A stretch of DNA of 64,000 bases from Eledone cirrhosa (Eukaryota), in assembly GCA_964016885.1 (NCBI GenBank), contig OZ024748.1, positions 1-64,000 on the forward strand, written 5' to 3'. Within the stretch, counting starts at the first letter, position 1. Each line of letters opens with the position of its first letter. The translations under genes were made by a program, and so were the position numbers. The notes beneath the pieces are model-generated. The model was not told where the DNA came from. It did no database searches and saw only the letters and a program-made list of their open reading frames with translations. Positions 399 to 64,000 of this stretch are shown piece after piece.

Positions 399-453
399 CA
401 ATGACCAAGACAACCAGCCTTGACAATTCAGTTTTATCAAACTAAATTTCCTG
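399..453 (-). other. Candidate spliced exon repeated in array 1 (also 14564-14621; donor mutated in units 2 and 3)
   Basis: Minus strand: ttgtttcccttcttAG/cAG acceptor ... TG|GTAAGC donor. Confidence 0.35.
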
Positions 454-1697: not shown

Positions 1698-1705
1698 TGT
1701 GCAAA

Positions 1706-2255: not shown

Positions 2256-2319
2256 TATCCATGCATAATATTTGCCTGTGTGTATATTTGAGAAAAGGAT
2301 AATGATAAAAAGATATATA

Positions 2320-3240: not shown

Positions 3241-3241
3241 T

Positions 3242-4640: not shown

Positions 4641-4855
4641 AGCTACACCCATTGTTCAGTGGCTAAATACAGTCAAAGAAAAATATCAAAATTGCTCTTC
4701 TTTCTCAGAGAGTTAAGTCAGCGAAGGTAACACACCACTAACAAAATCCCCTCCTACAAAAATGGTCAATGACCAATCCAGCAGATAAACAATTATATTA
4801 AGAAAAAAAAATTTCTTTTTAAACAAAGGACAATTAAATATTTACTGTTGAATGT

Positions 4856-5397
4856 CTGTGGGCTTATGTAGGGTCGGGCATCTCATAAATTCAGTATTTA
4901 CGCAGAGTAATATAGATAAAAATACATCAACGACAAACACTATAGTCTCGCATTTTAAAGGATTCGCTTTTGCAATAGAACAGGGAATCAATAAACTATC
5001 TGATTCAATAATATTTTATATTATATTGGCAGCGAACTCCAACTGCTGGGCCTGCATTCTTCTGTCTCGTCTGTTATGCTTGTACTTCATTGATTTTCAC
5101 TGCAACAATCACCAATTACTCTTGTTTATTCTCGGGGATGTCTTTTCTACCCACTGCATTCTTCACTACATCATGCAAATTTTCCACAGCTGCTCCACAG
5201 CTGTCAAATTTTCAATCTTAATTCGGCACAATTTCAACATCTTTTGCCTGCATCACACAGTATTCAGTCAATTAGTTTTTCTTCGTTTCCTATTCTTATA
5301 TTGCAAAAACATATCCATAAAAGTGCGAGATAATATAGCGAGTGTTCATAGATTTTGCTTATCTACATTATAATCACTCGACAGCTCCTTGGCAACA
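4856..5397 (-). mobile_element. Inverted-repeat element type A; copies 9191-9460 (internally deleted), 13940-14504, 19235-19740
   Basis: TIR pair in the 13940 copy: ctatattgtctcgcactttaaaggattcgcttttgcaata vs RC ctatattatctcgcacttttatggatatgtttttgcaata; interior homologous to type B. Confidence 0.6.
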
Positions 5398-9730: not shown

Positions 9731-9916
9731 TGTTTCTACTTTTGGCACAAGGCCAGCAATTAACCAGTACATTACTGGTACTTTATTTTATCCACCCCGT
9801 AAGGATGAAGGGCAAAGTTAACCTCGACGGGATTTGGACTCGGATCGTAAAGGGACGTAATTCTTTGCGTCAAAGCATGGCGTCCGACCCTCCACCGATA
9901 CTGCCAACCCACCGCC
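9731..9916 (-). mobile_element. tRNA-derived SINE with 16-17 bp TSD
   Basis: A box TGGCAGTATCGG, degenerate B box; flanked by (t)agctacaactaataat on both sides; empty site at ~704-719 in unit 1. Confidence 0.9.
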
Positions 9917-14822: not shown

Positions 14823-15008
14823 TGTTTCTACTTTTGGCACAAGGCCGGCAATAACCCAGTACATTACTGGTACTTTATTTTATCCACCCCGTAAGGATGA
14901 AAGGCAAAGTTAACCTCGGCGGGATTTGAACTCAGATCGTAAAGGGACGTAACTCTTTAAGTCAAAGCATGGCGTCCGACCCTCCACCGATACTGCCAAC
15001 CCACCGCC
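14823..15008 (-). mobile_element. tRNA-derived SINE, same insertion as 9731-9916
   Basis: Same TSD and position within the unit; B box GAGTTCAAATCCC. Confidence 0.9.
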
Positions 15009-18000: not shown

Positions 18001-20359
18001 AACTTTCAATGAACATAAGCTACAGAAGAGGTTCACAGGAGAAGTGAGCAACAGGTTCAGTGCTCTTTGTAGAGAGTTTGACAAAGAGGTACGGCTACTT
18101 GAACAATGCAGTAGCAGAAGCAAGTGAGACACTGATGCTGAGGAGAAAGAAGAAGAAGCATGTCAGTTCTGCAGACCCAAAGGTGTGTGCAGCCTGCCAA
18201 GGACCAATTCTGTGCTGATCCTATGGAGAGGATGGACACAGTGGAGGTGATGAGGGAAGCACTCTGTACCGCTTACACTGACGCCAGAGAGGAGGCACTA
18301 AAAGTGTTAAGAGAACGGTTGACAGTTGGATGATCAACGAGATCACATGGAGGAAAGGTCAGATCAAGGAAACAGATCCAGAGGATAGGAAAAAGGAAGT
18401 GGCTGGACCATTTTAGAACACAACTATGAGATGCCCTCCACAGCCAAGAACACTGGGCAGATCAGGTGGCTGTTACAAAAACTGAATATTGAGACAGGAC
18501 CCTTTGCCAGAGAGCTTCAGAGAGCAAAAAAAGAAGATAAAGGAGGGCAAGGCCCATGGAGAAAATCGAGTGGCATCAGGTCATGTAGAGTTGTGATTTT
18601 CATAGCTTGCAGTTCTGTAAAAAGGGACTGGAGAAACGAGTTTCCCTGAACCAGTGGACGATCAGTAACTTCGTGCCACTGCCAAAGAAGGCAGATCTCT
18701 TTAACAGCAACAACTACAGGGAGACCTCACTTGTGGCAAAGAACCTCAACAGGATGATTCTTAAGAGAATCCAGCCCTACATGGACAAAAAGCTCAAACA
18801 ACCAGAACAGCTTCAGAGATAAAGATCAACCAACGGTCACATCCTGATGCTGAGGAAGATATTTGAGGGAGCTAAAGCAAATTGCCTATAATTCTGACTA
18901 TCGTCACTGCCTGATCAAGATTTTTGTGGAATACAAAAGTATCACTGCTCTACACGAACACTAAAGCCAAAGTCATTACACCCGATGGTTCTTCGAATTA
19001 TTGGTTGGAGTGCTCCAAGGAGCTACACCCATTCTTCAGTGGCTAAATACAGTCAAAGAAAAATATAATTGCTTTTCTTTCTCAGAGAGTTAAGTCAGCG
19101 AAGGTAACACACCACTAACAAAATCCCCTCTCCTACTAAAATGGTCAATGACCAATCCAGCAGATAAACAATTATATTAAGAAAAAAAATTTCTTTTTAA
19201 ACAAAGGCCAATTACATATTTACTGTTGAAGGCCTGTTTGCGGGCTTATGTAGAGTAATATAGATATAAATACATCAACGACAAACACTATATTGTTTCG
19301 CACTTTAAAGGATTCGCTTTTGCAATAAAACGGAATCGACATTATCCGATTCCCTAATATTTCATATTATATTGGCATCTGCTTGGCAGCGAACTCCAAC
19401 TGCTGGGCCTGCATTCTTCTCTCTTGTCCGTTATGCTTGTACTTCATTGATTTTCACTGCTACAATCAGCAACTACTCTTTCTATGTTTATTCTCGGGGA
19501 TGTCTTTTCTACCCACTGCATTCTTCACTACATCATGCCAACTTTCTACAGCTGCTTCACATCGGTCACATCTACGATCTTAATTCTGAACAATTACCAT
19601 AAATATATATTTTGTCTGCATCAATCAGTTTGTCTTCGTTTCCTATTCTTATATTGCAAAAGCGTATAAAAAAAAAAATATAGCGTTTCCTCAAGATAAC
19701 CGTAACTATATTACTTTCACTCTCCAGCTTCCTGGTAACATAACCATATATTAAGTTTTAATGCATGTGCCTACTTGTATACCGTAATTTCTGTCTATAT
19801 TTATGAGGAAAAAGGTTAGATATTGACAAGATGATATAAATATATATAGCTATTCAGTTTTATATATACCCCCCCCCCCCCCCACACACACACACACAAC
19901 CACAAACTAAAACTAAACCCAAATAATTCATCTAGAAATTAATGAACCCCGTCGTATCTGCTTCGAAATGATATTCAAACAAATAGAAACTAAAACTTAC
20001 TATATCACTAACGTGCTGCATTAAATAGACATGAAAAAACACCCGTCTCAATTTTACGATGAAAACCGATATAATAAATTAAGCCTAAGCTTAATTAGTA
20101 AAGTAGTCTTCAGCAGAAACAGACAAGGCATAAATTCAATGACAGTTTTATCAAACAACAAAATTTCTGGCTAAAACGGAAAATAAAATATTTTTATTAA
20201 AATATACTACAGTAATTTCCCTTTGCTAATTAGAATGTTGCATAAACAGATTTCTACGGTGATATAAACACAAACCCGATACACACCAACATATATTATT
20301 ATATTGTATTTATATATTATATATATATACATGTGTATATAGTAGACATTTATTACAAA

Positions 20360-23300
20360 TACACACATAATACAGACACATAATACACACATAATACACA
20401 CATATAATACACAGATAATACACACATAATACACAGATAATACACACATAATACACACATAATACACACATATAATACAGATAATACGCACAGATAATAC
20501 ACACATATACACACATATAATACACAGATAATACACACATAATACACAGATAATACACATATAATACACACATAATACACACAGATAATACAGATAATAC
20601 ACACATATAATACAGATAATACGCACAGATAATACACACATATAATACACACATATACACACATATAATACACAGATAATACACACATAATACACAGATA
20701 ATACACACATATAATACACACATATAATACAGATAATACACACATATAATACAGATAATACGCACAGATAATACACATATAATACACACATATACACACA
20801 TATAATACACAGATAATACACACATAATACACAGATAATACACACATATAATACACACATATAATACAGATAATACACACATATAATACAGATAATACGC
20901 ACAGATAATACACACATATAATACACACATATAATACACAGATAATACACACATAATACACAGATAATACACAGATAATACACACATAATACACACATAA
21001 TACACACATATAATACAGATAATACGCACAGATAATACGCACAGATAATACGCACAGATAATACACACATATACACACATATAATACACACATAATACAC
21101 AGATAATACACACATAATACACACATAATACACACATATAATACAGATAATACGCACAGATAATACACACATATACACACATATAATACACAGATAATAC
21201 ACACATAATACACACATAATACACACATATAATACAGATAATACACACATATAATACAGATAATACGCACAGATAATACACACATATACACACATATAAT
21301 ACACACATAATACACACATAATACACACATATAATACAGATAATACGCACAGATAATACGCACAGATAATACACACAGATAATACACACATATACACACA
21401 TATAATACACAGATAATACACACATAATACACAGATAATAGACACATATACACACATATAATACAGATAATACACACATATAATACAGATAATACGCACA
21501 GATAATACACACATATAATACACACATATACACACATATAATACACAGATAATACACACATAATACACAGATAATACACACATATAATACACACATAATA
21601 CACACATATAATACAGATATTACACATATAATACAGATAATACGCACAGATAATACACACATATAATACACATATACACACATATACACAGATAATACAC
21701 ACATAATACACAGATAATACACACATAATACACATATAATACAGATAATACGCACAGATAATACGCACAGATAATACACAGATAATACACACATATACAC
21801 ACATATAATACACAGATAATACACACATAATACACAGATAATACACACATATAATACACACATAATACACACATATAATACAGATAATACACACATATAA
21901 TACAGATAATACGCACAGATAATACACACATATACACACATATAATACACAGATAATACACACATAATACACAGATAATACACACATATAATACACACAT
22001 AATACACACATATAATACAGATAATACACACATATAATACAGATAATACGCACAGATAATACACACATATAATACACACATATACACACATATAATACAC
22101 AGATAATACACACATAATACACAGATAATACACACATATAATACACACATATAATACAGATAATACACACATATAATACAGATAATACGCACAGATAATA
22201 CACACATATACACACATATAATACACAGATAATACACACATAATACACAGATAATACACACATATAATACACACATATAATACAGATAATACACATATAA
22301 TACAGATAATACGCACAGATAATACACACATATACACACATAATACACAGATAATACACACATAATACACAGATAATACACACATATAATACACACATAA
22401 TACACACATATAATACAGATAATACACACATATAATACAGATAATACGCACAGATAATACACACATATAATACACAGATAATACACACATAATACACAGA
22501 TAATACACACATATAATACACACATATAATACAGATAATACACACATATAATACAGATAATACGCACAGATAATACACACATATAATACACACATATACA
22601 CACATAATACACAGATAATACACACATAATACACAGATAATACACACATAATACACAGATAATACACACATATAATACACACATATAATACAGATAATAC
22701 GCACAGATAATACACACATATACACACATATAATACACAGATAATACACACATAATACACAGATAATACACACATAATACACACATAATACACACATATA
22801 ATACAGATAATACGCACAGATAATACGCACAGATAATACACAGATAATACACACATATACACACATATAATACACAGATAATACACACATAATACACAGA
22901 TATAATACACACATATAATACACACATATAATAATACAGATAATACACACATATAATACAGATAATACGCACAGATAATACACACATATAATACACACAT
23001 ATACACACATATAATACACATATAATACACAGATAATACACACATAATACACAGATAATACACACATATAATACACACATATAATACAGATAATACACAC
23101 ATATAATACAGATAATACGCACAGATAATACACACATATAATACACACATATACACACATAATACACAGATAATACACACATAATACACAGATAATACAC
23201 ACATATAATACACACATATAATACAGATAATACGCACAGATAATACACACATATACACACATATAATACACAGATAATACACACATAATACACAGATAAT

Positions 23301-23965
23301 ACACACATAATACACACATAATACACACATATAATACAGATAATACGCACAGATAATACACAGATAATACACACATATACACACATATAATACACAGATA
23401 ATACACACATAATACACAGATATAATACACACATATAATACACACATATAATAATACAGATAATACACACATATAATACAGATAATACGCACAGATAATA
23501 CACACATATAATACACACATATACACACATATAATACACAGATAATACACACATAATACACAGATAATACACACATATAATACACACATAATACACACAT
23601 ATAATACAGATAATACACACATATAATACAGATAATACACACATATACACACAGATAATACACACATAATACACAGATAATACACACATAATACACATAT
23701 AATACAGATAATACGCACAGATAATACGCACAGATAATACACACAGATAATACACACATATACACACATATAATACACAGATAATACACAGATAATACAC
23801 ACATAATACACACATATAATACAGATAATACGCACAGATAATACACACAGATAATACACACATATACACACATATAATACACAGATAATACACACATAAT
23901 ACACACATAATACACAGATAATACACACATATAATACACACATAATACACACATATAATACACAC
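20360..23965. repeat. Modular minisatellite of 9-13 bp ATAATAC-based modules
   Basis: Modules ACAGATAATAC, ACACATAATAC, ACACATATAATAC, AGATAATAC, GCACAGATAATAC, ACACATATAC; degenerate continuation 24153-24305. Confidence 0.97.
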
Positions 23966-24152
23966 AATTGTTTCTACTTTTGGCACAAGGCCAGCAATTA
24001 TCCCAGTGCATTACTGGTCCTTTATTTTATCAACCCCGTAAGGATGAAAGGCAAAGTTAACCTCGGCGGGATTTGAACCCAGAATAGCAAGGGCCGTAAC
24101 TCTATGCGTCAAAGCATGGCGTCCGACCCTCTACCGATACTGCCAATCCACC
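23966..24152 (-). mobile_element. tRNA-derived SINE inserted in the satellite
   Basis: Homologous to 9731-9916; A and B boxes present. Confidence 0.9.
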
Positions 24153-44500: not shown

Positions 44501-44640
44501 GGAAGGAAGTGAGCTAGCGGAGGAGTGAGTGAAAATAAGAGAAAGCCAGAAACATACATATATATATATATATATATATACATACATACAAATATATGCA
44601 TATATACATACATATAAATATATACATATATACATATATA

Positions 44641-45242
44641 TGGTGGTTGCCAACTCTTTTTCGAGTACGGCCCCTACTTTATATCCATGTAGGAGAACCC
44701 CTACCGATGGGCTGAACGAGTGTGACGTTTTAGTCCAGCCAGTGACTTGAAAACTCTGGTACAAACACTACACTTGTGACAATTATTGACAGTGCTGGGC
44801 CAATCGTACCATGTGACGACGAGTGCAGAGAGATCTCCAGATATAAAGCAATGCCTGTGCTGTGAAGCTTTTATAGTGAGCAAAGGCACTGCATAAAGCC
44901 AGTCCCACTCTCTTAACCAAGATGATATTTACCAAAAAGCAAAACAAGTCAACATCATTGGATACCATCAGGGTTGCAGGTGTTATATCAGAGTTTTCCT
45001 TCTAGAATTCTGCCTTGACACAGGCTAAGGGGTCATCTCTCCCGGTGATTTTGGATGGCCATTGACTCTTAAGAGCTCCTTTGCCCTTTGACAGGTTTTG
45101 TTTTTAGTCCTGCAGGATGTCCAAAATCACCCTCCTCACCAAGAAACCTTAGTGGGGTTGCCAGTTTAGTCGCCAACGACCCGACCAGGAGACAGGTTGT
45201 ACTGGGATACATGTTACCAGTAGCACCAACTGGTGACCTGAC
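44641..45242 (-). mobile_element. Short bipartite RTE-like element (5' UTR + C-terminal C2H2 finger/3' end, middle deleted)
   Basis: CSVCTRVFKSLAGLKRHTRSAH followed by a short 3' UTR; structured 5' end; flanked by TA repeats. Confidence 0.6.
45161..45242 (-). ncRNA. HDV-like ribozyme fold (P3/L3 degenerate)
   Basis: P1 gtcagg/cctggt, J1/2 hairpin accagt/actggt, P2 ccagt/actgg, GG, P4 tcg ttgg cga, J4/2 CTAA. Confidence 0.55.
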
Positions 45243-45289
45243 ATAATATATATGTATGTACATATATATATATACACACACACACACAA

Positions 45290-45789: not shown

Positions 45790-46045
45790 ACCTGCACTTC
45801 TCACTCCGTCTCAGGATCACCGAGACATCACCAACAACCAACCCACGCTGTGGGAAACAGTCCTCCCCGGGGCACACCCTGGTACTTCACACCATCTGTC
45901 TGTCTCGCTGCCTAACTACCGAGAAATCCGGCTTCTGTGCTTGCCTAATTTGTAGGTTATTAGGCAGTTGGCAGGTTTGCGGAAGTTGGTTTTGCAAATG
46001 GTTAAAACACTTGCATCACGAAATTCAAATAGCATCACTCCTTGT
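45790..46045 (-). mobile_element. Inverted RTE endonuclease fragment, left hairpin arm (in every unit; not in the ORF track)
   Basis: RC translates GVMLFEF.DASVLTICKTNFRKPANCLITYKLGKHRSRI..VVRQRDRQMV..PGEDCFPQRGLVVGD, aligned to 46320-46576. Confidence 0.93.
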
Positions 46046-46051
46046 TTTATC

Positions 46052-46170
46052 TTTCTCGTCTTTACCCAGGCCTGCATAAGTTAGTGTTACGGTTAGTGTT
46101 ACTGTTAGCGTTACGGCTAGTTTTAGGGTTAATTGAGAGCAAGAAACTGCTGCTAGGTAAAGACAAGAAA
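46052..46170. mobile_element. ~120-bp MITE-like insert: 18-bp inverted repeats around degenerate TTAGGG-like hexamers (in every unit)
   Basis: tttctcgtctttacc(c/t)ag / ctaggtaaagacaagaaa; ttagtg ttacgg ttagtg ttactg ttagcg ttacgg ctagtt ttaggg. Confidence 0.75.
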
Positions 46171-46214
46171 TTCTGCATTTACAAGCAATTTTTACAAACA
46201 GCCACAATGACAGG

Positions 46215-47195
46215 ACGGAGACATCGTTATGCTAGCAGGGGATTTCAATGGTCATGTTGGACAGCTCTACGATGGTTACACCGAGGTACATGTTGGGCAC
46301 ACTTACGGCTTAAGAAATGAAGCAGTGAAACTTCTTGAATTTTGCGATGCAATTGCACTAACCATCTACAACACTAACTTACACAAATCTGCCAACCACC
46401 TAATAACCTACAAATCAGGCAAGCACATAAGCCAGATTGACTTCTTGCTAGTTAGGCAGCGGGACACGCAGATGGTGTCAAATACAAAGGCATACCCCGG
46501 GGAAGAATGTACCCCACAGCATAGGTTAGTCGTTAGTGATATCTCATTAAGCAAGAGACTGAATGAGACATACAGGAAGGTGTGGAAAAAAGAAAGGTCT
46601 GGAAGCTAAAAGAGCTCTCACTAAAATACAAATTTAGGAAAGCCCTTCAATATGTGTATGATGAAAAAGAAGACGATTTAGAGTCGTACAACATAGATGA
46701 TAACTGGAATTTCTTATGCGATACCTTACTGCAGGTTACTGATGAAACTTGTGGCTGGATCAGAGTTCCAACCAGACAGAGAGTGACATGGTGGTGGGAC
46801 AGCACGGTAGATCGGGCCATTGGAGACTAAAGACTAGCATGGAATGCTTGCAAAATTAGTGCGAGTAGAGAAGAATATACAGCCGCTAAGAGAGAAGCTA
46901 GACGTCAGGTGTACTTAGCATGCAAGGAGGCTGCTCGACGACGTGCGCTGTTCCGTACTGCAAGGCAGTGTGTCAGTGAAAATCGGGATTAAGTCTGCCC
47001 GCAATGATGCCGCTGTACTTTGTGTCACGAATGAGTGTTGATGAGTAGAAAAGAGGACAAAACTCTATTCCGTCAGGGAAATGGCCATGTTCGATATGCA
47101 GAAACGGAACTGGCATAAATTATATAAAACGTACACAAAAGATCGAGTGCGATAGCAGGCACGTAGTGGGATAGCAGGCAAACTAACAGCATATT
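46215..47195 (+). mobile_element. RTE family A endonuclease + linker + Cys-finger fragments (in every unit)
   Basis: AGDFNGHVG, LITYKSG..SQIDFLLV, PGEECTPQHRLVV, KVWKLKE, TWWWD, GKWPCSICR. Confidence 0.93.
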
Positions 47196-48022: not shown

Positions 48023-48050
48023 CTGCAAAACACAAAACACTAGCGTTAGA

Positions 48051-48545
48051 GTGAAATTACCCTCAGTAGATCAGACAGAGGGACCAGCTATTGAGATTAA
48101 CGAATATAGGGTCCAAGAGGCGATTAAGGAAATGAAAAATGGTGAGGCTGCTGGACCATCGGAGATAGTTGCTGAGATGCTGAAGGCCTCAGGGGACGTA
48201 GGCACTAAACTGGTTGCACACATCATCAATCAGGCTATATATGGCAGTGTCATACCCAAAGACTAGTGCAAAAGTAAAGGGGACGCTCTTGAGAGGAGAA
48301 ATTATAGGGATATAAAACTGATGGATCAGGTTATGAAAGTGGCAGAAAGGATATTAGCACAACTAATTAGAGAAAGGGTCAAACTAGATGAGATGCAGTT
48401 TGGTTTTGTGCCTGGGAATAGTACAACAGATGCCCTCTTCTTGATGAGACAATTACAAGAGAGGTTCTTAGAGAAAAATAAGCCACTATACTTAGCCTTT
48501 GTTGACCTAGAGAAGGCCTTTGATAGGGTACGCCGATCTGTCATC
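48051..48545 (+). mobile_element. RTE family A RT fragment (in every unit)
   Basis: EAIKEMKNGEAAGPSEIVAEMLK, MQFGFVPG, RQLQERFLEKNKPLYLAFVDLEKAFDRV. Confidence 0.95.
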
Positions 48546-51391
48546 TTATTATTTAACCTATAAATGGGGCCCCAACAGGTACTACTACACCAGGCCAGAG
48601 CAGACCTGGGAGTTATGACAACTAAGGGGGTAACTCCACGTTCCCCACAGTTCCTTCTGAACTTGAGCCTTGCCACTGGATGTAGTTTAATGTCATACCC
48701 AGGACAAATATATACATACATATATATATATGCATACACACATATATATATATATACATATATACAAATATATATATGCGTACGAAAGTGTGGTTACATG
48801 ATGCCTATGCGAGATGTGCGACGCTGCATGGTAGTGAGACATGGACAGCAACTGCAGAGGGTATGCGATGGCTGGAGAGAAATGAAGCAAGCACGCTCCG
48901 TTGGATGTGCAATGTCAATGTGCGGGAACGACCAAGCATAAACGAGTTGAGAGAGAAACTGTGTTTAAGAGGGATAAGTTGTGGTGTGCAAGAGAGGACT
49001 GAGATGGTATGGACATGTGATGCGCATGGAGGTTGAGCGCTGGGTAAAGAAGGGAGACGCAGTAGAGGAAGACCACGAAAAACATGGGTGGAGGTGGTGA
49101 GAGCCGACTTCAGATCGCTGAAACTCACCAAGGAGATGACGAAGGACCGTGACAAGTGAAGAGATGCTTTGCTCAAGAGGACCTGTCCCACCCTTTCAAG
49201 CAGGGAAAAGCGGACGTAAAATGATGAACAGACGATGATAATGATGCTCTCTATATATCTATCTCTCTATCAATCTATCCAGATATCTGTGCATCAGTCT
49301 ATCTATTTACCTACACTTCTCACTCCGTCTCAGGATCACCGAGACATCACCAACAACCAACCCACGCTGTGGGAAACAGTCCTCCCCGGGGCACACCCTG
49401 GTACTTCACACCATCTGTCTGTCTCGCTGCCTAACTACCGAGAAATCCGGCTTCTGTGCTTGCCTAATTCGTAGGTTATTAGGCAGTTGGCAGGTTTGCG
49501 GAAGTTGGTTTTGCAAATGGTTAAAACACTTGCATCACAAAATTCAAATAGCATCACTCCTTGTTTTATCTTTCTCGTCTTTACCTAGGCCTGCATAAGT
49601 TAGTGTTACGGTTAGTGTTACTGTTAGCGTTACGGCTAGTTTTAGGGTTAATTGAGAGCAAGAAACTGCTGCTAGGTAAAGACAAGAAATTCTGCATTTA
49701 CAAGCAATTTTTACAAACAGCCACAATGACAGGACGGAGACATCGTTATGCTAGCAGGGGATTTCAATGGTCATGTTGGACAGCTCTACGATGGTTACAC
49801 CGAGGTACGTGTTGGGCACACTTACGGCTTAAGAAATGAAGCAGTGAAACTTCTTGAATTTTGCGATGCAATTGCACTAACCATCTACAACACTAACTTA
49901 CACAAATCTGCCAACCACCTAATAACCTACAAATCAGGCAAGCACATAAGCCAGATTGACTTCTTGCTAGTGAGGCAGCGGGACAGGCAGATGGTGTCAA
50001 ATACAAAGGCATACCCCGGGGAAGAATGTACCCCAAGCAAGAGACTGAATGAGACATACAGGAAGGTGTGGAAAAAAGAAAGGTCTGGAAGCTAAAAGAG
50101 CTCTCACTAAAATACAAATTTAGGAAAGCCCTTCAATATGTGTATGATGAAAAAGAAGACGATTTAGAGTCGTACAACATAGATGATAACTGGAATTTCT
50201 TATGCGATACCTTACTGCAGGTTACTGATGAAACTTGTGGCTGGATCAGAGTTCCAACCAGACAGAGAGTGACATGGTGGTGGGACAGCACGGTAGATCG
50301 GGCCATTGGAGACTAAAGACTAGCATGGAATGCTTGCAAAATTAGTGCGAGTAGAGAAGAATATACAGCTGCTAAGAGAGAAGCTAGACGTCAGGTGTAC
50401 TTAGCATGCAAGGAGGCTGCTCGACGACGTGCGCTGTTCCGTACTGCGAGGCAGTGTGTCAGTGCAAATCGGGATTAAGTCTGTCCGCAATGATGCCGCT
50501 GTACTTTGTGTCACGAATGAGTGTTGATGAGTAGAAAAGAGGACAAAACTCTATTCCGTCAGGGAAATGGCCATGTTCGATATGCAGAAACGGAACTGGC
50601 ATAAATTATATAAAACGTACACAAAAGATCGAGTGCGATAGCAGGCACGTAGTGGGATAGCAGGCAAACTAACAGCATATTTTGATTATAATAAAACAAA
50701 TAATAATAGTAATAATAATAATAATAATCGTCATTGTTCTTTTCTTCTGTGCCTTTCTTTGCCTTCTCTGTCATCTGAATAACAAAAATAAAAGAAAAAA
50801 GAATCTTAAACATATGTTGCCTTTACAAAGTGCTGTGATCAAAGTAGCTTTTAAGCAATTTCCTAACTAACAAACAACATCAACAAAATATATACAAATA
50901 TCTTTGAATGTCAAGTCCACCAAGAGAAAATAGTCATAATGTACTTACAGATACAATGCTAGGGACTCGCATCAATGAGTTTTAGTAGAAAATGACTGAC
51001 TGACTGTTGAGGGACAGAGGTGTGTTTTCAAATATTTATCAATTCACAACAAAGCCTCACAAAGCTACATCATAATGCAAACTCACAACACCCTTCTTAT
51101 GCAACCTCACCAAGCAACCCCACAACACAACCTCACGTTCACAATTCACAACACTCAACAAGGCATTCGTTATCTAGGGTTTACAGTAAACATAGCGAGG
51201 TAAGACACACCCAGTACACTCTGTAAAGTGGTCATTAGGTTAAGATTAAACTGAAATCATACCTCCATTGTCGTTGGCGTATATTTTCTCTAAAACTTAA
51301 TTTCATTGCTTTCATTTCTCTTCTTTTTCTTCTATTCCATCTAAATATGAAAAAAAAATTATACAGGTCATTTCGTCTTATCAAGAGGTCC

Positions 51392-51430
<39 letters not shown>

Positions 51431-54400
51431 GAGATAATACCTTAAAATAATGGTAAAAAAAGTGTTTAATTACGAAAATCCTTTGAAATAACTTCCTCGC
51501 TCTTACTGGTCATACCTGCAAAACACAAAACACTAGCGTTAGCGTGAACAGTGCAGTGCAGTGGAGTGCAGTGCAGTGCAGTGTAATTTAGTATGGTGCA
51601 GTTTAGTGGCACAGTACACTGTAAAACATTTAGCCAATCTCTCAGACATTTACAAATCTTTCAAGATATATATATATATATGGGAGAGAGAGAAATTACC
51701 CTCAGTAGATCAGACAGAGGGACCAGCTATTGAGATTAACGAATATAGGGTCCAAGAGGCGATTAAGGAAATGAAAAATGGTGAGGCTGCTGGACCATCG
51801 GAGATAGTTGCTGAGATGCTGAAGGCCTCAGGGGACGTAGGCACTAAACTGGTTGCACACATCATCAATCAGGCTATATATGGCAGTGTCATACCCAAAG
51901 ACTAGTGCAAAAGTAAAGGGGACGCTCTTGAGAGGAGAAATTATAGGGATATAAAACTGATGGATCAGGTTATGAAAGTGGCAGAAAGGATATTAGCACA
52001 ACTAATTAGAGAAAGGGTCAAACTAGATGAGATGCAGTTTGGTTTTGTGCCTGGGAATAGTACAACAGATGCCCTCTTCTTGATGAGACAATTACAAGAG
52101 AGGTTCTTAGAGAAAAATAAGCCACTATACTTAGCCTTTGTTGACCTAGAGAAGGCCTTTGATAGGGTACGCCGATCTGTCATCTTATTATTTAACCTAT
52201 AAAAGGGGCCCCAACAGGTACTACTACACCAGGCCAGAGCAGACCTGGGAGTTATGACAACTAAGGGGGTAACTCCACGTTCCCCACAGTTCCTTCTGAA
52301 CTTGAGCCTTGCCACTGGATGTAGTTTAATGTCATACCCAGGACAAATATATACATACATATATATATATGCATACACACATATATATATATATACATAT
52401 ATACAAATATATATATGCGTACGAAAGTGTGGTTACATGATGCCTATGCGAGATGTGCGACGCTGCATGGTAGTGAGACATGGACAGCAACTGCAGAGGG
52501 TATGCGATGGCTGGAGAGAAATGAAGCAAGCACGCTCCGTTGGATGTGCAATGTCAATGTGCGGGAACGACCAAGCATAAACGAGTTGAGAGAGAAACTG
52601 TGTTTAAGAGGGATAAGTTGTGGTGTGCAAGAGAGGACTGAGATGGTATGGACATGTGATGCGCATGGAGGTTGAGCGCTGGGTAAAGAAGGGAGACGCA
52701 GTAGAGGAAGACCACGAAAAACATGGGTGGAGGTGGTGAGAGCCGACTTCAGATCGCTGAAACTCACCAAGGAGATGACGAAGGACCGTGACAAGTGAAG
52801 AGATGCTTTGCTCAAGAGGACCTGTCCCACCCTTTCAAGCAGGGAAAAGCGGACGTAAAATGATGAACAGACGATGATAATGATGCTCTCTATATATCTA
52901 TCTCTCTATCAATCTATCCAGATATCTGTGCATCAGTCTATCTATTTACCTACACTTCTCACTCCGTCTCAGGATCACCGAGACATCACCAACAACCAAC
53001 CCACGCTGTGGGAAACAGTCCTCCCCGGGGCACACCCTGGTACTTCACACCATCTGTCTGTCTCGCTGCCTAACTACCGAGAAATCCGGCTTCTGTGCTT
53101 GCCTAATTCGTAGGTTATTAGGCAGTTGGCAGGTTTGCGGAAGTTGGTTTTGCAAATGGTTAAAACACTTGCATCACAAAATTCAAATAGCATCACTCCT
53201 TGTTTTATCTTTCTCGTCTTTACCTAGGCCTGCATAAGTTAGTGTTACGGTTAGTGTTACTGTTAGCGTTACGGCTAGTTTTAGGGTTAATTGAGAGCAA
53301 GAAACTGCTGCTAGGTAAAGACAAGAAATTCTGCATTTACAAGCAATTTTTACAAACAGCCACAATGACAGGACGGAGACATCGTTATGCTAGCAGGGGA
53401 TTTCAATGGTCATGTTGGACAGCTCTACGATGGTTACACCGAGGTACGTGTTGGGCACACTTACGGCTTAAGAAATGAAGCAGTGAAACTTCTTGAATTT
53501 TGCGATGCAATTGCACTAACCATCTACAACACTAACTTACACAAATCTGCCAACCACCTAATAACCTACAAATCAGGCAAGCACATAAGCCAGATTGACT
53601 TCTTGCTAGTGAGGCAGCGGGACAGGCAGATGGTGTCAAATACAAAGGCATACCCCGGGGAAGAATGTACCCCAAGCAAGAGACTGAATGAGACATACAG
53701 GAAGGTGTGGAAAAAAGAAAGGTCTGGAAGCTAAAAGAGCTCTCACTAAAATACAAATTTAGGAAAGCCCTTCAATATGTGTATGATGAAAAAGAAGACG
53801 ATTTAGAGTCGTACAACATAGATGATAACTGGAATTTCTTATGCGATACCTTACTGCAGGTTACTGATGAAACTTGTGGCTGGATCAGAGTTCCAACCAG
53901 ACAGAGAGTGACATGGTGGTGGGACAGCACAGTAGATCGGGCCATTGGAGACTAAAGACTAGCATGGAATGCTTGCAAAATTAGTGCGAGTAGAGAAGAA
54001 TATACAGCTGCTAAGAGAGAAGCTAGACGTCAGGTGTACTTAGCATGCAAGGTGGCTGCTCGACGACGTGCGCTGTTCCGTACTGCGAGGCAGTGTGTCA
54101 GTGCAAATCGGGATTAAGTCTGTCCGCAATGATGCCGCTGTACTTTGTGTCACGAATGAGTGTTGATGAGTAGAAAAGAGGACAAAACTCTATTCCGTCA
54201 GGGAAATGGCCATGTTCGATATGCAGAAACGGAACTGGCATAAATTATATAAAACGTACACAAAAGATCGAGTGCGATAGCAGGCACGTAGTGGGATAGC
54301 AGGCAAACTAACAGCATATTTTGATTATAATAAAACAAATAATAATAGTAATAATAATAATAATAATCGTCATTGTTCTTTTCTTCTGTGCCTTTCTTTG

Positions 54401-55032
54401 CCTTCTCTGTCATCTGAATAACAAAAATAAAAGAAAAAAAGAATCTTAAACATATGTTGCCTTTACAAAGTGCTGTGATCAAAGTAGCTTTTAAGCAATT
54501 TCCTAACTAACAAACAACATCAACAAAATATATACAAATATCTTTGAATGTCAAGTCCACCAAGAGAAAATAGTCATAATGTACTTACAGATACAATGCT
54601 AGGGACTCGCATCAATGAGTTTTAGTAGAAAATGACTGACTGACTGTTGAGGGGACAGAGGTGTGTTTTCAAATATTTATCAATTCACAACAAAGCCTCA
54701 CAAAGCTACATCATAATGCAAACTCACAACACCCTTCTTATGCAACCTCACCAAGCAACCCCACAACACAACCTCACGTTCACAATTCACAACACTCAAC
54801 AAGGCATTCGTTATCTAGGGTTTACAGTAAACATAGCGAGGTAAGACACACCCAGTACACTCTGTAAAGTGGTCATTAGGTTAAGATTAAACTGAAATCA
54901 TACCTCCATTGTCGTTGGCGTATATTTTCTGTAAAACTTAATTTCATTGCTTTCATTTCTCTTCTTTTTCTTCTATTCCATCTAAATATGAAAAAAAAAT
55001 TATACAGGTCATTTCGTCTTATCAAGAGGTCC

Positions 55033-55071
<39 letters not shown>

Positions 55072-58000
55072 GAGATAATACCTTAAAATAATGGTAAAAA
55101 AAGTGTTTAATTACGAAAATCCTTTGAAATAACTTCCTCGCTCTTACTGGTCATACCTGCAAAACACAAAACACTAGCGTTAGCGTGAACAGTGCAGTGC
55201 AGTGGAGTGCAGTGCAGTGCAGTGTAATTTAGTATGGTGCAGTTTAGTGGCACAGTACACTGTAAAACATTTAGCCAATCTCTCAGACATTTACAAATCT
55301 TTCAAGATATATATATATATATGGGAGAGAGAGAAATTACCCTCAGTAGATCAGACAGAGGGACCAGCTATTGAGATTAACGAATATAGGGTCCAAGAGG
55401 CGATTAAGGAAATGAAAAATGGTGAGGCTGCTGGACCATCGGAGATAGTTGCTGAGATGCTGAAGGCCTCAGGGGACGTAGGCACTAAACTGGTTGCACA
55501 CATCATCAATCAGGCTATATATGGCAGTGTCATACCCAAAGACTAGTGCAAAAGTAAAGGGGACGCTCTTGAGAGGAGAAATTATAGGGATATAAAACTG
55601 ATGGATCAGGTTATGAAAGTGGCAGAAAGGATATTAGCACAACTAATTAGAGAAAGGGTCAAACTAGATGAGATGCAGTTTGGTTTTGTGCCTGGGAATA
55701 GTACAACAGATGCCCTCTTCTTGATGAGACAATTACAAGAGAGGTTCTTAGAGAAAAATAAGCCACTATACTTAGCCTTTGTTGACCTAGAGAAGGCCTT
55801 TGATAGGGTACGCCGATCTGTCATCTTATTATTTAACCTATAAATGGGGCCCCAACAGGTACTACTACACCAGGCCAGAGCAGACCTGGGAGTTATGACA
55901 ACTAAGGGGGTAACTCCACGTTCCCCACAGTTCCTTCTGAACTTGAGCCTTGCCACTGGATGTAGTTTAATGTCATACCCAGGACAAATATATACATACA
56001 TATATATATATGCATACACACATATATATATATATACATATATACAAATATATATATGCGTACGAAAGTGTGGTTACATGATGCCTATGCGAGATGTGCG
56101 ACGCTGCATGGTAGTGAGACATGGACAGCAACTGCAGAGGGTATGCGATGGCTGGAGAGAAATGAAGCAAGCACGCTCCGTTGGATGTGCAATGTCAATG
56201 TGCGGGAACGACCAAGCATAAACGAGTTGAGAGAGAAACTGTGTTTAAGAGGGATAAGTCGTGGTGTGCAAGAGAGGACTGAGATGGTATGGACATGTGA
56301 TGCGCATGGAGGTTGAGCGCTGGGTAAAGAAGGGAGACGCAGTAGAGGAAGACCACGAAAAACATGGGTGGAGGTGGTGAGAGCCGACTTCAGATCGCTG
56401 AAACTCACCAAGGAGATGACGAAGGACCGTGACAAGTGAAGAGATGCTTTGCTCAAGAGGACCTGTCCCACCCTTTCAAGCAGGGAAAAGCGGACGTAAA
56501 ATGATGAACAGACGATGATAATGATGCTCTCTATATATCTATCTCTCTATCAATCTATCCAGATATCTGTGCATCAGTCTATCTATTTACCTACACTTCT
56601 CACTCCGTCTCAGGATCACCGAGACATCACCAACAACCAACCCACGCTGTGGGAAACAGTCCTCCCCGGGGCACACCCTGGTACTTCACACCATCTGTCT
56701 GTCTCGCTGCCTAACTACCGAGAAATCCGGCTTCTGTGCTTGCCTAATTCGTAGGTTATTAGGCAGTTGGCAGGTTTGCGGAAGTTGGTTTTGCAAATGG
56801 TTAAAACACTTGCATCACAAAATTCAAATAGCATCACTCCTTGTTTTATCTTTCTCGTCTTTACCTAGGCCTGCATAAGTTAGTGTTACGGTTAGTGTTA
56901 CTGTTAGCGTTACGGCTAGTTTTAGGGTTAATTGAGAGCAAGAAACTGCTGCTAGGTAAAGACAAGAAATTCTGCATTTACAAGCAATTTTTACAAACAG
57001 CCACAATGACAGGACGGAGACATCGTTATGCTAGCAGGGGATTTCAATGGTCATGTTGGACAGCTCTACGATGGTTACACCGAGGTACGTGTTGGGCACA
57101 CTTACGGCTTAAGAAATGAAGCAGTGAAACTTCTTGAATTTTGCGATGCAATTGCACTAACCATCTACAACACTAACTTACACAAATCTGCCAACCACCT
57201 AATAACCTACAAATCAGGCAAGCACATAAGCCAGATTGACTTCTTGCTAGTGAGGCAGCGGGACAGGCAGATGGTGTCAAATACAAAGGCATACCCCGGG
57301 GAAGAATGTACCCCAAGCAAGAGACTGAATGAGACATACAGGAAGGTGTGGAAAAAAGAAAGGTCTGGAAGCTAAAAGAGCTCTCACTAAAATACAAATT
57401 TAGGAAAGCCCTTCAATATGTGTATGATGAAAAAGAAGACGATTTAGAGTCGTACAACATAGATGATAACTGGAATTTCTTATGCGATACCTTACTGCAG
57501 GTTACTGATGAAACTTGTGGCTGGATCAGAGTTCCAACCAGACAGAGAGTGACATGGTGGTGGGACAGCACGGTAGATCGGGCCATTGGAGACTAAAGAC
57601 TAGCATGGAATGCTTGCAAAATTAGTGCGAGTAGAGAAGAATATACAGCCGCTAAGAGAGAAGCTAGACGTCAGGTGTACTTAGCATGCAAGGAGGCTGC
57701 TCGACGACGTGCGCTGTTCCGTACTGCGAGGCAGTGTGTCAGTGCAAATCGGGATTAAGTCTGTCCGCAATGATGCCGCTGTACTTTGTGTCACGAATGA
57801 GTGTTGATGAGTAGAAAAGAGGACAAAACTCTATTCCGTCAGGGAAATGGCCATGTTCGATATGCAGAAACGGAACTGGCATAAATTATATAAAACGTAC
57901 ACAAAAGATCGAGTGCGATAGCAGGCACGTAGTGGGATAGCAGGCAAACTAACAGCATATTTTGATTATAATAAAACAAATAATAATAGTAATAATAATA

Positions 58001-58673
58001 ATAATAATCGTCATTGTTCTTTTCTTCTGTGCCTTTCTTTGCCTTCTCTGTCATCTGAATAACAAAAATAAAAGAAAAAAAGAATCTTAAACATATGTTG
58101 CCTTTACAAAGTGCTGTGATCAAAGTAGCTTTTAAGCAATTTCCTAACTAACAAACAACATCAACAAAATATATACAAATATCTTTGAATGTCAAGTCCA
58201 CCAAGAGAAAATAGTCATAATGTACTTACAGATACAATGCTAGGGACTCGCATCAATGAGTTTTAGTAGAAAATGACTGACTGACTGTTGAGGGGACAGA
58301 GGTGTGTTTTCAAATATTTATCAATTCACAACAAAGCCTCACAAAGCTACATCATAATGCAAACTCACAACACCCTTCTTATGCAACCTCACCAAGCAAC
58401 CCCACAACACAACCTCACGTTCACAATTCACAACACTCAACAAGGCATTCGTTATCTAGGGTTTACAGTAAACATAGCGAGGTAAGACACACCCAGTACA
58501 CTCTGTAAAGTGGTCATTAGGTTAAGATTAAACTGAAATCATACCTCCATTGTCGTTGGCGTATATTTTCTCTAAAACTTAATTTCATTGCTTTCATTTC
58601 TCTTCTTTTTCTTCTATTCCATCTAAATATGAAAAAAAAATTATACAGGTCATTTCGTCTTATCAAGAGGTCC

Positions 58674-58704
<31 letters not shown>

Positions 58705-61700
58705 CCGAGATAATACCTTAAAATAATGGTAAAAAAAGTGTTTAATTACGAAAATCCTTTGAAATAACTTCCTCGCTCTTACTGGTCATACCTGCAAAAC
58801 ACAAAACACTAGCGTTAGCGTGAACAGTGCAGTGCAGTGGAGTGCAGTGCAGTGCAGTGTAATTTAGTATGGTGCAGTTTAGTGGCACAGTACACTGTAA
58901 AACATTTAGCCAATCTCTCAGACATTTACAAATCTTTCAAGATATATATATATATATGGGAGAGAGAGAAATTACCCTCAGTAGATCAGACAGAGGGACC
59001 AGCTATTGAGATTAACGAATATAGGGTCCAAGAGGCGATTAAGGAAATGAAAAATGGTGAGGCTGCTGGACCATCGGAGATAGTTGCTGAGATGCTGAAG
59101 GCCTCAGGGGACGTAGGCACTAAACTGGTTGCACACATCATCAATCAGGCTATATATGGCAGTGTCATACCCAAAGACTAGTGCAAAAGTAAAGGGGACG
59201 CTCTTGAGAGGAGAAATTATAGGGATATAAAACTGATGGATCAGGTTATGAAAGTGGCAGAAAGGATATTAGCACAACTAATTAGAGAAAGGGTCAAACT
59301 AGATGAGATGCAGTTTGGTTTTGTGCCTGGGAATAGTACAACAGATGCCCTCTTCTTGATGAGACAATTACAAGAGAGGTTCTTAGAGAAAAATAAGCCA
59401 CTATACTTAGCCTTTGTTGACCTAGAGAAGGCCTTTGATAGGGTACGCCGATCTGTCATCTTATTATTTAACCTATAAATGGGGCCCCAACAGGTACTAC
59501 TACACCAGGCCAGAGCAGACCTGGGAGTTATGACAACTAAGGGGGTAACTCCACGTTCCCCACAGTTCCTTCTGAACTTGAGCCTTGCCACTGGATGTAG
59601 TTTAATGTCATACCCAGGACAAATATATACATACATATATATATATGCATACACACATATATATATATATACATATATACAAATATATATATGCGTACGA
59701 AAGTGTGGTTACATGATGCCTATGCGAGATGTGCGACGCTGCATGGTAGTGAGACATGGACAGCAACTGCAGAGGGTATGCGATGGCTGGAGAGAAATGA
59801 AGCAAGCACGCTCCGTTGGATGTGCAATGTCAATGTGCGGGAACGACCAAGCATAAACGAGTTGAGAGAGAAACTGTGTTTAAGAGGGATAAGTTGTGGT
59901 GTGCAAGAGAGGACTGAGATGGTATGGACATGTGATGCGCATGGAGGTTGAGCGCTGGGTAAAGAAGGGAGACGCAGTAGAGGAAGACCACGAAAAACAT
60001 GGGTGGAGGTGGTGAGAGCCGACTTCAGATCGCTGAAACTCACCAAGGAGATGACGAAGGACCGTGACAAGTGAAGAGATGCTTTGCTCAAGAGGACCTG
60101 TCCCACCCTTTCAAGCAGGGAAAAGCGGACGTAAAATGATGAACAGACGATGATAATGATGCTCTCTATATATCTATCTCTCTATCAATCTATCCAGATA
60201 TCTGTGCATCAGTCTATCTATTTACCTACACTTCTCACTCCGTCTCAGGATCACCGAGACATCACCAACAACCAACCCACGCTGTGGGAAACAGTCCTCC
60301 CCGGGGCACACCCTGGTACTTCACACCATCTGTCTGTCTCGCTGCCTAACTACCGAGAAATCCGGCTTCTGTGCTTGCCTAATTCGTAGGTTATTAGGCA
60401 GTTGGCAGGTTTGCGGAAGTTGGTTTTGCAAATGGTTAAAACACTTGCATCACAAAATTCAAATAGCATCACTCCTTGTTTTATCTTTCTCGTCTTTACC
60501 TAGGCCTGCATAAGTTAGTGTTACGGTTAGTGTTACTGTTAGCGTTACGGCTAGTTTTAGGGTTAATTGAGAGCAAGAAACTGCTGCTAGGTAAAGACAA
60601 GAAATTCTGCATTTACAAGCAATTTTTACAAACAGCCACAATGACAGGACGGAGACATCGTTATGCTAGCAGGGGATTTCAATGGTCATGTTGGACAGCT
60701 CTACGATGGTTACACCGAGGTACGTGTTGGGCACACTTACGGCTTAAGAAATGAAGCAGTGAAACTTCTTGAATTTTGCGATGCAATTGCACTAACCATC
60801 TACAACACTAACTTACACAAATCTGCCAACCACCTAATAACCTACAAATCAGGCAAGCACATAAGCCAGATTGACTTCTTGCTAGTGAGGCAGCGGGACA
60901 GGCAGATGGTGTCAAATACAAAGGCATACCCCGGGGAAGAATGTACCCCAAGCAAGAGACTGAATGAGACATACAGGAAGGTGTGGAAAAAAGAAAGGTC
61001 TGGAAGCTAAAAGAGCTCTCACTAAAATACAAATTTAGGAAAGCCCTTCAATATGTGTATGATGAAAAAGAAGACGATTTAGAGTCGTACAACATAGATG
61101 ATAACTGGAATTTCTTATGCGATACCTTACTGCAGGTTACTGATGAAACTTGTGGCTGGATCAGAGTTCCAACCAGACAGAGAGTGACATGGTGGTGGGA
61201 CAGCACAGTAGATCGGGCCATTGGAGACTAAAGACTAGCATGGAATGCTTGCAAAATTAGTGCGAGTAGAGAAGAATATACAGCTGCTAAGAGAGAAGCT
61301 AGACGTCAGGTGTACTTAGCATGCAAGGAGGCTGCTCGACGACGTGCGCTGTTCCGTACTGCGAGGCAGTGTGTCAGTGCAAATCGGGATTAAGTCTGTC
61401 CGCAATGATGCCGCTGTACTTTGTGTCACGAATGAGTGTTGATGAGTAGAAAAGAGGACAAAACTCTATTCCGTCAGGGAAATGGCCATGTTCGATATGC
61501 AGAAACGGAACTGGCATAAATTATATAAAACGTACACAAAAGATCGAGTGCGATAGCAGGCACGTAGTGGGATAGCAGGCAAACTAACAGCATATTTTGA
61601 TTATAATAAAACAAATAATAATAGTAATAATAATAATAATAATCGTCATTGTTCTTTTCTTCTGTGCCTTTCTTTGCCTTCTCTGTCATCTGAATAACAA

Positions 61701-62306
61701 AAATAAAAGAAAAAAGAATCTTAAACATATGTTGCCTTTACAAAGTGCTGTGATCAAAGTAGCTTTTAAGCAATTTCCTAACTAACAAACAACATCAACA
61801 AAATATATACAAATATCTTTGAATGTCAAGTCCACCAAGAGAAAATAGTCATAATGTACTTACAGATACAATGCTAGGGACTCGCATCAATGAGTTTTAG
61901 TAGAAAATGACTGACTGACTGTTGAGGGACAGAGGTGTGTTTTCAAATATTTATCAATTCACAACAAAGCCTCACAAAGCTACATCATAATGCAAACTCA
62001 CAACACCCTTCTTATGCAACCTCACCAAGCAACCCCACAACACAACCTCACGTTCACAATTCACAACACTCAACAAGGCATTCGTTATCTAGGGTTTACA
62101 GTAAACATAGCGAGGTAAGACACACCCAGTACACTCTGTAAAGTGGTCATTAGGTTAAGATTAAACTGAAATCATACCTCCATTGTCGTTGGCGTATATT
62201 TTCTCTAAAACTTAATTTCATTGCTTTCATTTCTCTTCTTTTTCTTCTATTCCATCTAAATATGAAAAAAAAATTATACAGGTCATTTCGTCTTATCAAG
62301 AGCTCC

Positions 62307-62337
<31 letters not shown>

Positions 62338-64000
62338 CCGAGATAATACCTTAAAATAATGGTAAAAAAAGTGTTTAATTACGAAAATCCTTTGAAATAA
62401 CTTCCTCGCTCTTACTGGTCATACCTGCAAAACACAAAACACTAGCGTTAGCGTGAACAGTGCAGTGCAGTGGAGTGCAGTGCAGTGCAGTGTAATTTAG
62501 TATGGTGCAGTTTAGTGGCACAGTACACTGTAAAACATTTAGCCAATCTCTCAGACATTTACAAATCTTTCAAGATATATATATATATATGGGAGAGAGA
62601 GAAATTACCCTCAGTAGATCAGACAGAGGGACCAGCTATTGAGATTAACGAATATAGGGTCCAAGAGGCGATTAAGGAAATGAAAAATGGTGAGGCTGCT
62701 GGACCATCGGAGATAGTTGCTGAGATGCTGAAGGCCTCAGGGGACGTAGGCACTAAACTGGTTGCACACATCATCAATCAGGCTATATATGGCAGTGTCA
62801 TACCCAAAGACTAGTGCAAAAGTAAAGGGGACGCTCTTGAGAGGAGAAATTATAGGGATATAAAACTGATGGATCAGGTTATGAAAGTGGCAGAAAGGAT
62901 ATTAGCACAACTAATTAGAGAAAGGGTCAAACTAGATGAGATGCAGTTTGGTTTTGTGCCTGGGAATAGTACAACAGATGCCCTCTTCTTGATGAGACAA
63001 TTACAAGAGAGGTTCTTAGAGAAAAATAAGCCACTATACTTAGCCTTTGTTGACCTAGAGAAGGCCTTTGATAGGGTACGCCGATCTGTCATCTTATTAT
63101 TTAACCTATAAATGGGGCCCCAACAGGTACTACTACACCAGGCCAGAGCAGACCTGGGAGTTATGACAACTAAGGGGGTAACTCCACGTTCCCCACAGTT
63201 CCTTCTGAACTTGAGCCTTGCCACTGGATGTAGTTTAATGTCATACCCAGGACAAATATATACATACATATATATATATGCATACACACATATATATATA
63301 TATACATATATACAAATATATATATGCGTACGAAAGTGTGGTTACATGATGCCTATGCGAGATGTGCGACGCTGCATGGTAGTGAGACATGGACAGCAAC
63401 TGCAGAGGGTATGCGATGGCTGGAGAGAAATGAAGCAAGCACGCTCCGTTGGATGTGCAATGTCAATGTGCGGGAACGACCAAGCATAAACGAGTTGAGA
63501 GAGAAACTGTGTTTAAGAGGGATAAGTTGTGGTGTGCAAGAGAGGACTGAGATGGTATGGACATGTGATGCGCATGGAGGTTGAGCGCTGGGTAAAGAAG
63601 GGAGACGCAGTAGAGGAAGACCACGAAAAACATGGGTGGAGGTGGTGAGAGCCGACTTCAGATCGCTGAAACTCACCAAGGAGATGACGAAGGACCGTGA
63701 CAAGTGAAGAGATGCTTTGCTCAAGAGGACCTGTCCCACCCTTTCAAGCAGGGAAAAGCGGACGTAAAATGATGAACAGACGATGATAATGATGCTCTCT
63801 ATATATCTATCTCTCTATCAATCTATCCAGATATCTGTGCATCAGTCTATCTATTTACCTACACTTCTCACTCCGTCTCAGGATCACCGAGACATCACCA
63901 ACAACCAACCCACGCTGTGGGAAACAGTCCTCCCCGGGGCACACCCTGGTACTTCACACCATCTGTCTGTCTCGCTGCCTAACTACCGAGAAATCCGGCT

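Follow-up and report, generated by a model that had tools for sequence, protein, structure and literature searches.

Hyperediting of A to G has been described in retroviral DNA from RAV-1, avian leukosis virus and HTLV-2/STLV-3 (PMC8586724). Depletion of changes after a 5' G is the mark of ADAR, in molluscs as elsewhere (PMC4365171, PMC8586724, PMC6651903). In vertebrate genomes, APOBEC "DNA editing" of LTR retrotransposons has become fixed (PMC4866542, PMC2873906), as found in a screen that covered LTR elements and used 19 invertebrates as a negative control. At the RNA level, transcripts of inverted repeats are A-to-I hyperedited (PMC4365171), and coleoids have ADAR as well as repeat-directed editing in all tissues (PMC9068888). 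The last source suggests that ADAR could mutate retrotransposon RNA that goes on to integrate, and describes this as unexplored in cephalopods. Against such a mechanism, no ADAR1 edits were seen on the L1 RNA of human cells (PMC5224506). Our literature search, with most subscription journals and supplements outside its reach, found no published ADAR-edited genomic LINE copies, and the available parts of PMC5974252 and PMC3185545 held nothing bearing on the case.

We analyzed a window of 64,000 nt from Eledone cirrhosa (GCA_964016885.1, contig OZ024748.1, positions 1 to 64,000) that contains two LINE fragments arranged head-to-head. Judging from the substitutions in the assembly, the run of A>G changes in the left arm very probably represents ADAR edits that were fixed in germline DNA by a LINE reverse transcriptase. 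The arm resembles hyperedited retroviral DNA in its clusters of RNA-strand A>G changes, its avoidance of a 5' G, and fixation by reverse transcription (PMC8586724). Unlike the retroviral cases, it belongs to a non-LTR element in an invertebrate germline, is inherited, seems to have been edited repeatedly, and has multiplied into a satellite. It shares with APOBEC-edited LTR elements (PMC4866542, PMC2873906) a sense-strand burst of a single substitution type, read against family relatives, but the change is A>G rather than G>A, the presumed target is RNA rather than cDNA, and the element is a LINE rather than an LTR element. It shares with hyperedited inverted-repeat transcripts (PMC4365171) a presumed inverted-repeat substrate, a neighbor bias, and dense clusters, whereas the known edits are in RNA only and those described here are in DNA and in one arm only.

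The features of the window to which we refer are these.

44640..45284, no strand assigned: the interspersed 645-nt "U" repeat, found in the same place in the C6 satellite variant and in retrocopy L199
45290..45790, plus strand: 3'-terminal piece of a LINE, including a (GAT)n tail and a microsatellite, unedited
45791..46044, minus strand: left arm, a LINE endonuclease fragment with 18 derived A>G changes, the remnant of a 570-nt arm
45795..45885, minus strand: dense part of the A>G cluster, with 15 of 33 scorable A's changed to G, distal to the editing boundary
45795, 45797, 45804, 45818, 45821, 45826, 45832, 45839, 45844: left-arm derived sites 1-9, C on the plus strand
45846, 45863, 45873, 45875, 45879, 45885, 45929, 45965, 45980: left-arm derived sites 10-18, C on the plus strand
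46046..46080, minus strand: leading piece of the left arm, from the same LINE region as the start of the right arm, matching L200 689-720 and followed by a deletion of ~140 nt
46080..46131, no strand assigned: spacer between the arms, made of 12-nt GTTAG-rich repeats
46140..47034, plus strand: right arm, a 5'-truncated, decayed, unedited LINE copy of the same subfamily, of which 46315-46576 pairs with the left arm
48048..64000, no strand assigned: tandem array of ~3.64-kb units that are 99.7-99.9% identical
49310, 52949, 56590, 60225, 63858: starts of the edited left arm in the array units

The edited arm is part of an abundant satellite, which the sequence-only reading does not mention. The array extends beyond the window, to base 94,000 of the contig or further, and the unit (3.3-3.7 kb) has spread over at least 12 contigs as a multi-chromosome satellite. 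The best 40 of 2,251 candidates were 99-100% identical and lay on 12 contigs, mostly near contig ends, and the same left arm was present in 30 of 30 loci examined and in the further units of the window. Contig depth was ~3,000-3,800, compared to 5-7 for single-locus variants, suggesting several hundred copies per satellite variant, roughly. The edited arm is not an assembly error, because short-read contigs contain the same sequence to the letter. Units 2-5 of the window lack 33 nt of the right arm. A second satellite variant (64 motif matches) held the left arm at 11 of 12 loci examined and lacks the pairing part of the right arm, with 46268-46559 deleted. Rfam gave no match anywhere in the 64-kb window.

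Recounting the differences between the arms reproduced the asymmetry reported in the sequence-only reading. A local alignment of 45791-46048 (minus strand) with 46315-46576 (plus strand) had 262 columns, 22 transversions, and a single 4-nt gap. For the left arm versus the right, about 20 A>G against 2 G>A and about 10 C>T against 3-4 T>C had been claimed, and we counted 20 against 2 and 10 against 4. None of the 20 A>G sites (0/20) follows a G in the right arm, in agreement with that reading; the three uAg sites it had named are TAG at 46523, 46528, and 46535, and the residue changes it had listed (SQI>SRI, QHRL>QRGL, VSD>VGD) are borne out by SRI, QRGL, and VGD in left-arm translations. The proposed G:U pairing in minus-strand RNA was consistent with the predicted folds: the minus strand of the hairpin forms one long stem (-410.6 kcal/mol, compared to -338.5 kcal/mol for the plus strand) in which A>G and C>T changes preserve G:U pairs.

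Both arms belong to a LINE family of the type with one long open reading frame for endonuclease and reverse transcriptase, as in the RTE clade. The protein of the right arm matches PF03372/PF00078 proteins of ~1,060 aa (APE-type endonuclease plus reverse transcriptase), and there are copies of the family with open frames of >1,000 aa. The 130-aa right-arm piece itself had no Pfam hit; the closest named protein to the right arm is an Octopus bimaculoides endonuclease (54%). We take the family to be RTE by resemblance. A second basis for the clade name is provided by the RTE LINEs of octopus, which are similar in having endonuclease and reverse transcriptase in a single ORF (PMC9115989).

It is the left arm that carries the A>G excess; the right arm has decayed like any other copy. 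We polarized the changes with dispersed copies fetched using queries taken from a stretch of endonuclease missing in the satellite. From 90 loci, 54 unique copies were aligned (36 were dropped as duplicates or too short), and 22 of the 54 are the subfamily of both arms. Columns variable within the subfamily were excluded from the polarized counts, and the G at 46067, which is polymorphic among satellite copies, was not counted. Identity to most of the 22 subfamily copies was 84-88% for the right arm and 73-80% for the left. In the non-variable columns, the left arm in the window had A>G at 18 of 79 sites, with 1 G>A, 6 C>T, and 3 T>C, and the right arm had A>G at 0 of 80. Accordingly, 18 of the 20 raw A>G differences are derived G's in the left arm and 2 are G>A changes in the right arm. 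For states common to the window arm and a sister variant, A>G was found at 16 of 77 sites (2.4 expected; binomial p 5e-7). The maximum density per 100 columns was 14 in this shared short arm and 14-25 for the A>G footprint, compared to no more than 5 in each of the 54 family copies. A match of the left arm to an abundant subfamily with G at these sites, or symmetry after polarization, would have told against retroposition of an edited RNA; the family has A at these sites and the asymmetry grew on polarizing, so the retroposition reading survives both tests.

The C>T half of the reported signal did not hold up. In the short arm, C>T was 4/49 versus G>A 1/47 (p 0.36), and in the long arm of older variants, described below, 6/88 versus 6/128 (p 0.55); the latter G>A count also means that clustering of the APOBEC type is absent on the sense strand. 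Some of the raw C>T differences are subfamily variants, and two fall on CA>TG steps adjoining a changed A. We also considered that C's in the right arm might be edited T's, and rejected this because the family has C.

The arms are likely derived from two source copies, to judge from the states they carry. They differ at haplotype sites 46330, 46462, and 46468, although they share four non-variable and five variable derived states. A private change at 46384 that is common to both arms had suggested a foldback duplication as their origin, an idea that was rejected in view of the haplotype sites and of older right arms without the change at 46384.

Older variants of the satellite, found by motif search on C2 and C6 and subsequently on C14, have a left arm of ~570 nt. 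Among states common to these long arms, A>G was found at 67 of 187 sites (5.9 expected) and T>C at 4 of 109 (p 1.5e-11). Changes private to each variant after the split were ordinary (A>G 5/53), indicating that the A>G burst is older than all satellite variants. Changes other than A>G were about twice as numerous in the left arm as in the right (35 versus 14), which weighs against the ADAR reading.

The neighbors of the changed adenosines fit the ADAR-like preference that had been claimed. In the long arm, the 5' order was T (20/35, 0.57), A (26/61, 0.43), C (11/40, 0.28), and G (10/51, 0.20; chi-square p 0.0017), matching the preference described in PMC4365171, PMC8586724, and PMC6651903. The A>G rate after a 5' G was lower than the rest in the short arm (0/15 versus 16/62, p 0.03) and in the long arm (10/51 versus 57/136, p 0.006), and when the long arm was pooled with two unrelated hypermutated copies, L204 and L234, the rates for T, A, C, and G were 0.44, 0.33, 0.22, and 0.14 (G versus rest, p 1e-5). 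A's before a 3' G were changed at 24 of 54 sites in the long arm (p 0.13), and a 3' G gave the highest rate in the pooled set (p 0.019). There was no 5' neighbor bias of this type in dispersed copies. The ten changed A's after a G in the long arm, and the 3' bias there, which is not significant by itself, count against the ADAR reading.

Five dispersed relatives of the left arm have flanks of their own. These singletons (L199, L201, L202, L207, and L236), found by searches with edited queries, each join the LINE 3' fragment and its tail to a portion of the left arm. The LINE 3' fragment accompanies the left arm in every dispersed relative, and in these copies is unedited (T>C at 0-3 of ~70 sites, in 8 of 8). 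No right arm was found within the fetched flanks (7 kb on each side for four relatives and 1.5 kb for L236). On the 5' side of the LINE-sense strand, three of the five are cut beside (TATG)n, and two (L202 and L236) are inverted, with the geometry of twin-priming 5' inversion as defined in PMC2912911. This truncation and inversion resemble LINE-mobilized retrocopies as described there; unlike such retrocopies, the relatives have 3' ends in TA-rich microsatellite, antisense of the LINE 3' fragment. No target-site duplications were recognized by eye in any of the five, whose ends lie in microsatellite, and no 3' poly(A) tail was recognized.

The relatives share a core of G's and carry further changes of their own. 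Of the core G's, they have 63/68, 54/57, 49/54, 25/33, and 10/11. At sites that are still A in the satellite lineage, extra A>G changes were found at 16/84 (L199), 18/59 (L201), 16/53 (L202), and 10/22 (L236), compared to 0.1-1.8 expected. In L201, L202, and L236 the extra sites coincide from copy to copy (p 0.001-0.016), but they do not coincide with those of L199 (p 0.26-1). L199 has eight derived non-A>G states in common with the C2/C6 variants that are missing from L200, and also has the U repeat, as does the window, which makes descent from a locus with a hairpin likely. This grouping is contradicted by three states; two of these are G>A, which a second round of editing could have reversed. 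In L207, 8 of 33 core G's are missing and extras occur at 1 of 34 sites, which strict inheritance does not account for; the pattern is compatible with separate molecules copied from a parent with fewer edits, or with conversion at a later time. The relatives point to passage through RNA, and this passage was likely repeated. No unedited parent locus was found among the 40 that we scored of 2,442 candidates.

The boundary of first-round editing does not coincide with the right arm, whereas the extras of L199 do. In the 135 nt of the core arm nearest the spacer, 2 of 42 sites were edited and ~21 were expected, although the right arm would pair there, and the same part of the inverted piece in L202 had 0 of 24 edited (~16 expected). 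The extra changes in L199 were spread evenly (3/16 proximal and 13/68 distal). This pattern suggests a shorter partner in the first round, with the right arm as a later partner. Part of the dip may be intrinsic, since L204 and L234 are also lower in the spacer-proximal region (6/86 versus 49/289, p 0.02).

L204 and L234 are LINE copies that are unrelated to the satellite and have the same type of change. L204 (G000:C12:18.27 Mb) had A>G at 35 of 227 sites versus 2 T>C, and L234 (G000:C1:169.0 Mb) at 39 of 287 versus 2, both with a neighbor bias like that of the left arm. The densely changed stretch stops at LINE position 1374 in L204 and at 1276 in L234, near the end of the left arm (1433); both copies were retrieved with queries from the region near the left-arm end. 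No inverted partner of L204 was found within 14 kb around it. Overlap with the core G's had an odds ratio of ~3.6 for L204 and L234, compared to 12-100 for the relatives, indicating that the shared core is not a matter of sequence context alone.

Hypermutated LINE copies appear to be rare. There were none among the 54 copies picked by upstream similarity, and none of 58 young-family alignments (89 kb of fetched DNA) exceeded 5 A>G per 100. In the old family, with 209 alignments (278 kb), densities of at least 10 per 100 were confined to the satellite lineage, L204, and L234; the sample of fetched DNA in these scans is biased both ways. A paired motif search in the reverse-transcriptase region gave three double A>G matches versus one double T>C match, and none of the four was hypermutated.

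We weighed other explanations for the one-sided changes. Misincorporation by reverse transcriptase during retroposition, for example from an unbalanced nucleotide pool and with no editing enzyme, would account for A>G changes being tied to structures left by RNA passage, and a polymerase error could be one-stranded. We consider it very improbable: the changes stop at segment borders, with the LINE 3' fragment unedited, the order of neighbors fits ADAR, and L204 and L234 were hit in their 5' parts and fall to near background further 3'. Deamination of a DNA strand in place, whether by ADAR on an RNA:DNA hybrid or by damage to exposed single-stranded DNA, with no cDNA, would explain one changed arm beside its partner. 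Its chances seem just as slim, in that damage to a single strand would be expected to increase C>T and the long arm shows no such increase, changes made in place after the split are ordinary, and the copies with extras are those that have new flanks and are truncated or inverted on the 5' side (so far four of five retroposed copies versus none of five duplicated variants).

Strand-biased mutation, whether a by-product of transcription or replication or the work of an error-prone polymerase at A after A or T, is less probable still. The favored 5' neighbors T and A also fit the WA-type signature, which is the mark of error-prone polymerase at A after A/T. However, the long arm has 67 A>G changes versus 6 A>T and 2 A>C, and several of the A>T and A>C sites are G in relatives; moreover, a third to a half of the A's changed within one interval, and the right arm, 300 nt away, is unbiased. 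With the adjacent LINE 3' fragment also unbiased, these neighbors largely refute strand-biased mutation, and the transcription-linked bias offered in the sequence-only reading is not supported.

Editing and retroposition of the hairpin RNA in its entirety, or selection that keeps the hairpin and tolerates G:U pairs, is hardly credible. The single long stem of the minus strand and the preserved G:U pairs would be expected from either. However, the partner strand is unedited, with T>C at 1 of 111 sites in the right arm compared to the 67 of 187 A>G in the left (p 4e-15), indicating that the hairpin was not edited and retroposed whole; this form is refuted, barring a complete replacement of the right arm by conversion at a later stage. 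The earlier suggestion of a retrotransposed hyper-edited RNA consequently stands for the left arm and fails for the complete hairpin. Selection for pairing, also suggested, is not supported, given the abundant variant without the pairing part of the right arm and the 33 nt missing from window units 2-5; in addition, the window's own left arm has lost >300 nt, and C>T is not in excess. Origin from a G-rich LINE subfamily outside the sample has the least chance of all, even though the matches listed are the best 40-150 of thousands of candidates, for the arm has diagnostic states of the 22-copy subfamily, its G's destroy conserved residues and differ between relatives, and edited queries gave, among the matches listed, only relatives, two hypermutated singletons, and ordinary copies.

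ADAR editing followed by LINE reverse transcription would have proceeded as follows. A minus-strand transcript of the window would have carried the arm, and ADAR would have edited the paired part of the double-stranded RNA. The LINE enzyme would then have reverse transcribed this RNA, priming in the TA-rich microsatellite and ending inside the arm. At least two rounds would have occurred in this lineage, with L199 arising from a window-like locus and gaining its 16 new changes. We are less sure that the partner in the first round was other than today's right arm and that the right arm paired in later rounds. Finally, DNA-level copying of the edited arm together with its unedited neighbor would have built up a satellite that is mostly subtelomeric. 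One route to the present locus would have joined the edited cDNA head-to-head with an unedited copy, although both arms begin within ~35 nt of one LINE position, for which chance is a poor explanation; in the other, the edited cDNA would have overwritten one arm at its source locus. No function is implied for the hairpin or the satellite.

From the nested changes in the relatives, we lean slightly toward a germline editing ratchet, in which a non-autonomous, LINE-derived RNA goes through successive rounds of ADAR editing and LINE reverse transcription, and each round would convert a further 20-45% of the remaining adenosines, causing a stepwise loss of A. In its strongest form, edited cDNA would replace one arm of the hairpin that gave rise to it. 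If this is true, then RNA editing acts as a heritable mutagen, and one of its products is now a satellite of hundreds of copies. Such copies would be a DNA fossil record of germline RNA editing in a cephalopod, a member of the group in which editing is heaviest. Assemblies alone would suffice to test whether retrotransposon RNA mutated by ADAR can still integrate and whether the edits feed back into the genome, and nested relatives would allow editing rounds to be counted and ordered and the site preferences of the ancestral enzyme to be determined. The weight of this process in genome evolution is probably small, because such copies appear to be rare.

Several other properties of the window and its satellite were observed. 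The spacer (46080-46131) differs in length among satellite variants, and its repeats resemble variants of telomeric TTAGGG. The U repeat has TG...CA ends within TA microsatellite, with copies elsewhere that are 90-95% identical and sometimes in tandem; from these features it may be a solo LTR. The second satellite variant lies in a 28-90 kb (mostly 35-45 kb) tandem repeat at G000:C28:124.7-126.4 Mb (L095-L106), and the same large repeat is present at C18:6.70-6.72 Mb and on small contigs. This large repeat also contains an 18S rRNA 5' fragment followed by 317-nt repeats, and a match to the histone 3' stem-loop. We considered the 36-kb repeat on C28 as a full rDNA unit and rejected this, as Rfam found no full rRNA gene. 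An 83-nt piece of the right arm (46186-46267) has the same sequence in L095; the two satellite variants are otherwise 83-89% alike, suggesting recent conversion between them. Sequencing run X5, labeled as another organism (organism B), has contigs with near-identical pieces of both satellite variants at a depth of 2-4, which may come from a close relative or from carried-over DNA. Elsewhere in the window, positions 1-20000 hold a second, older array of ~4.7-5 kb units of other LINE fragments that are 88-96% identical, and 20358-23966 is a 3.6 kb AC-rich simple repeat of 11-13-nt units with a strong strand skew.
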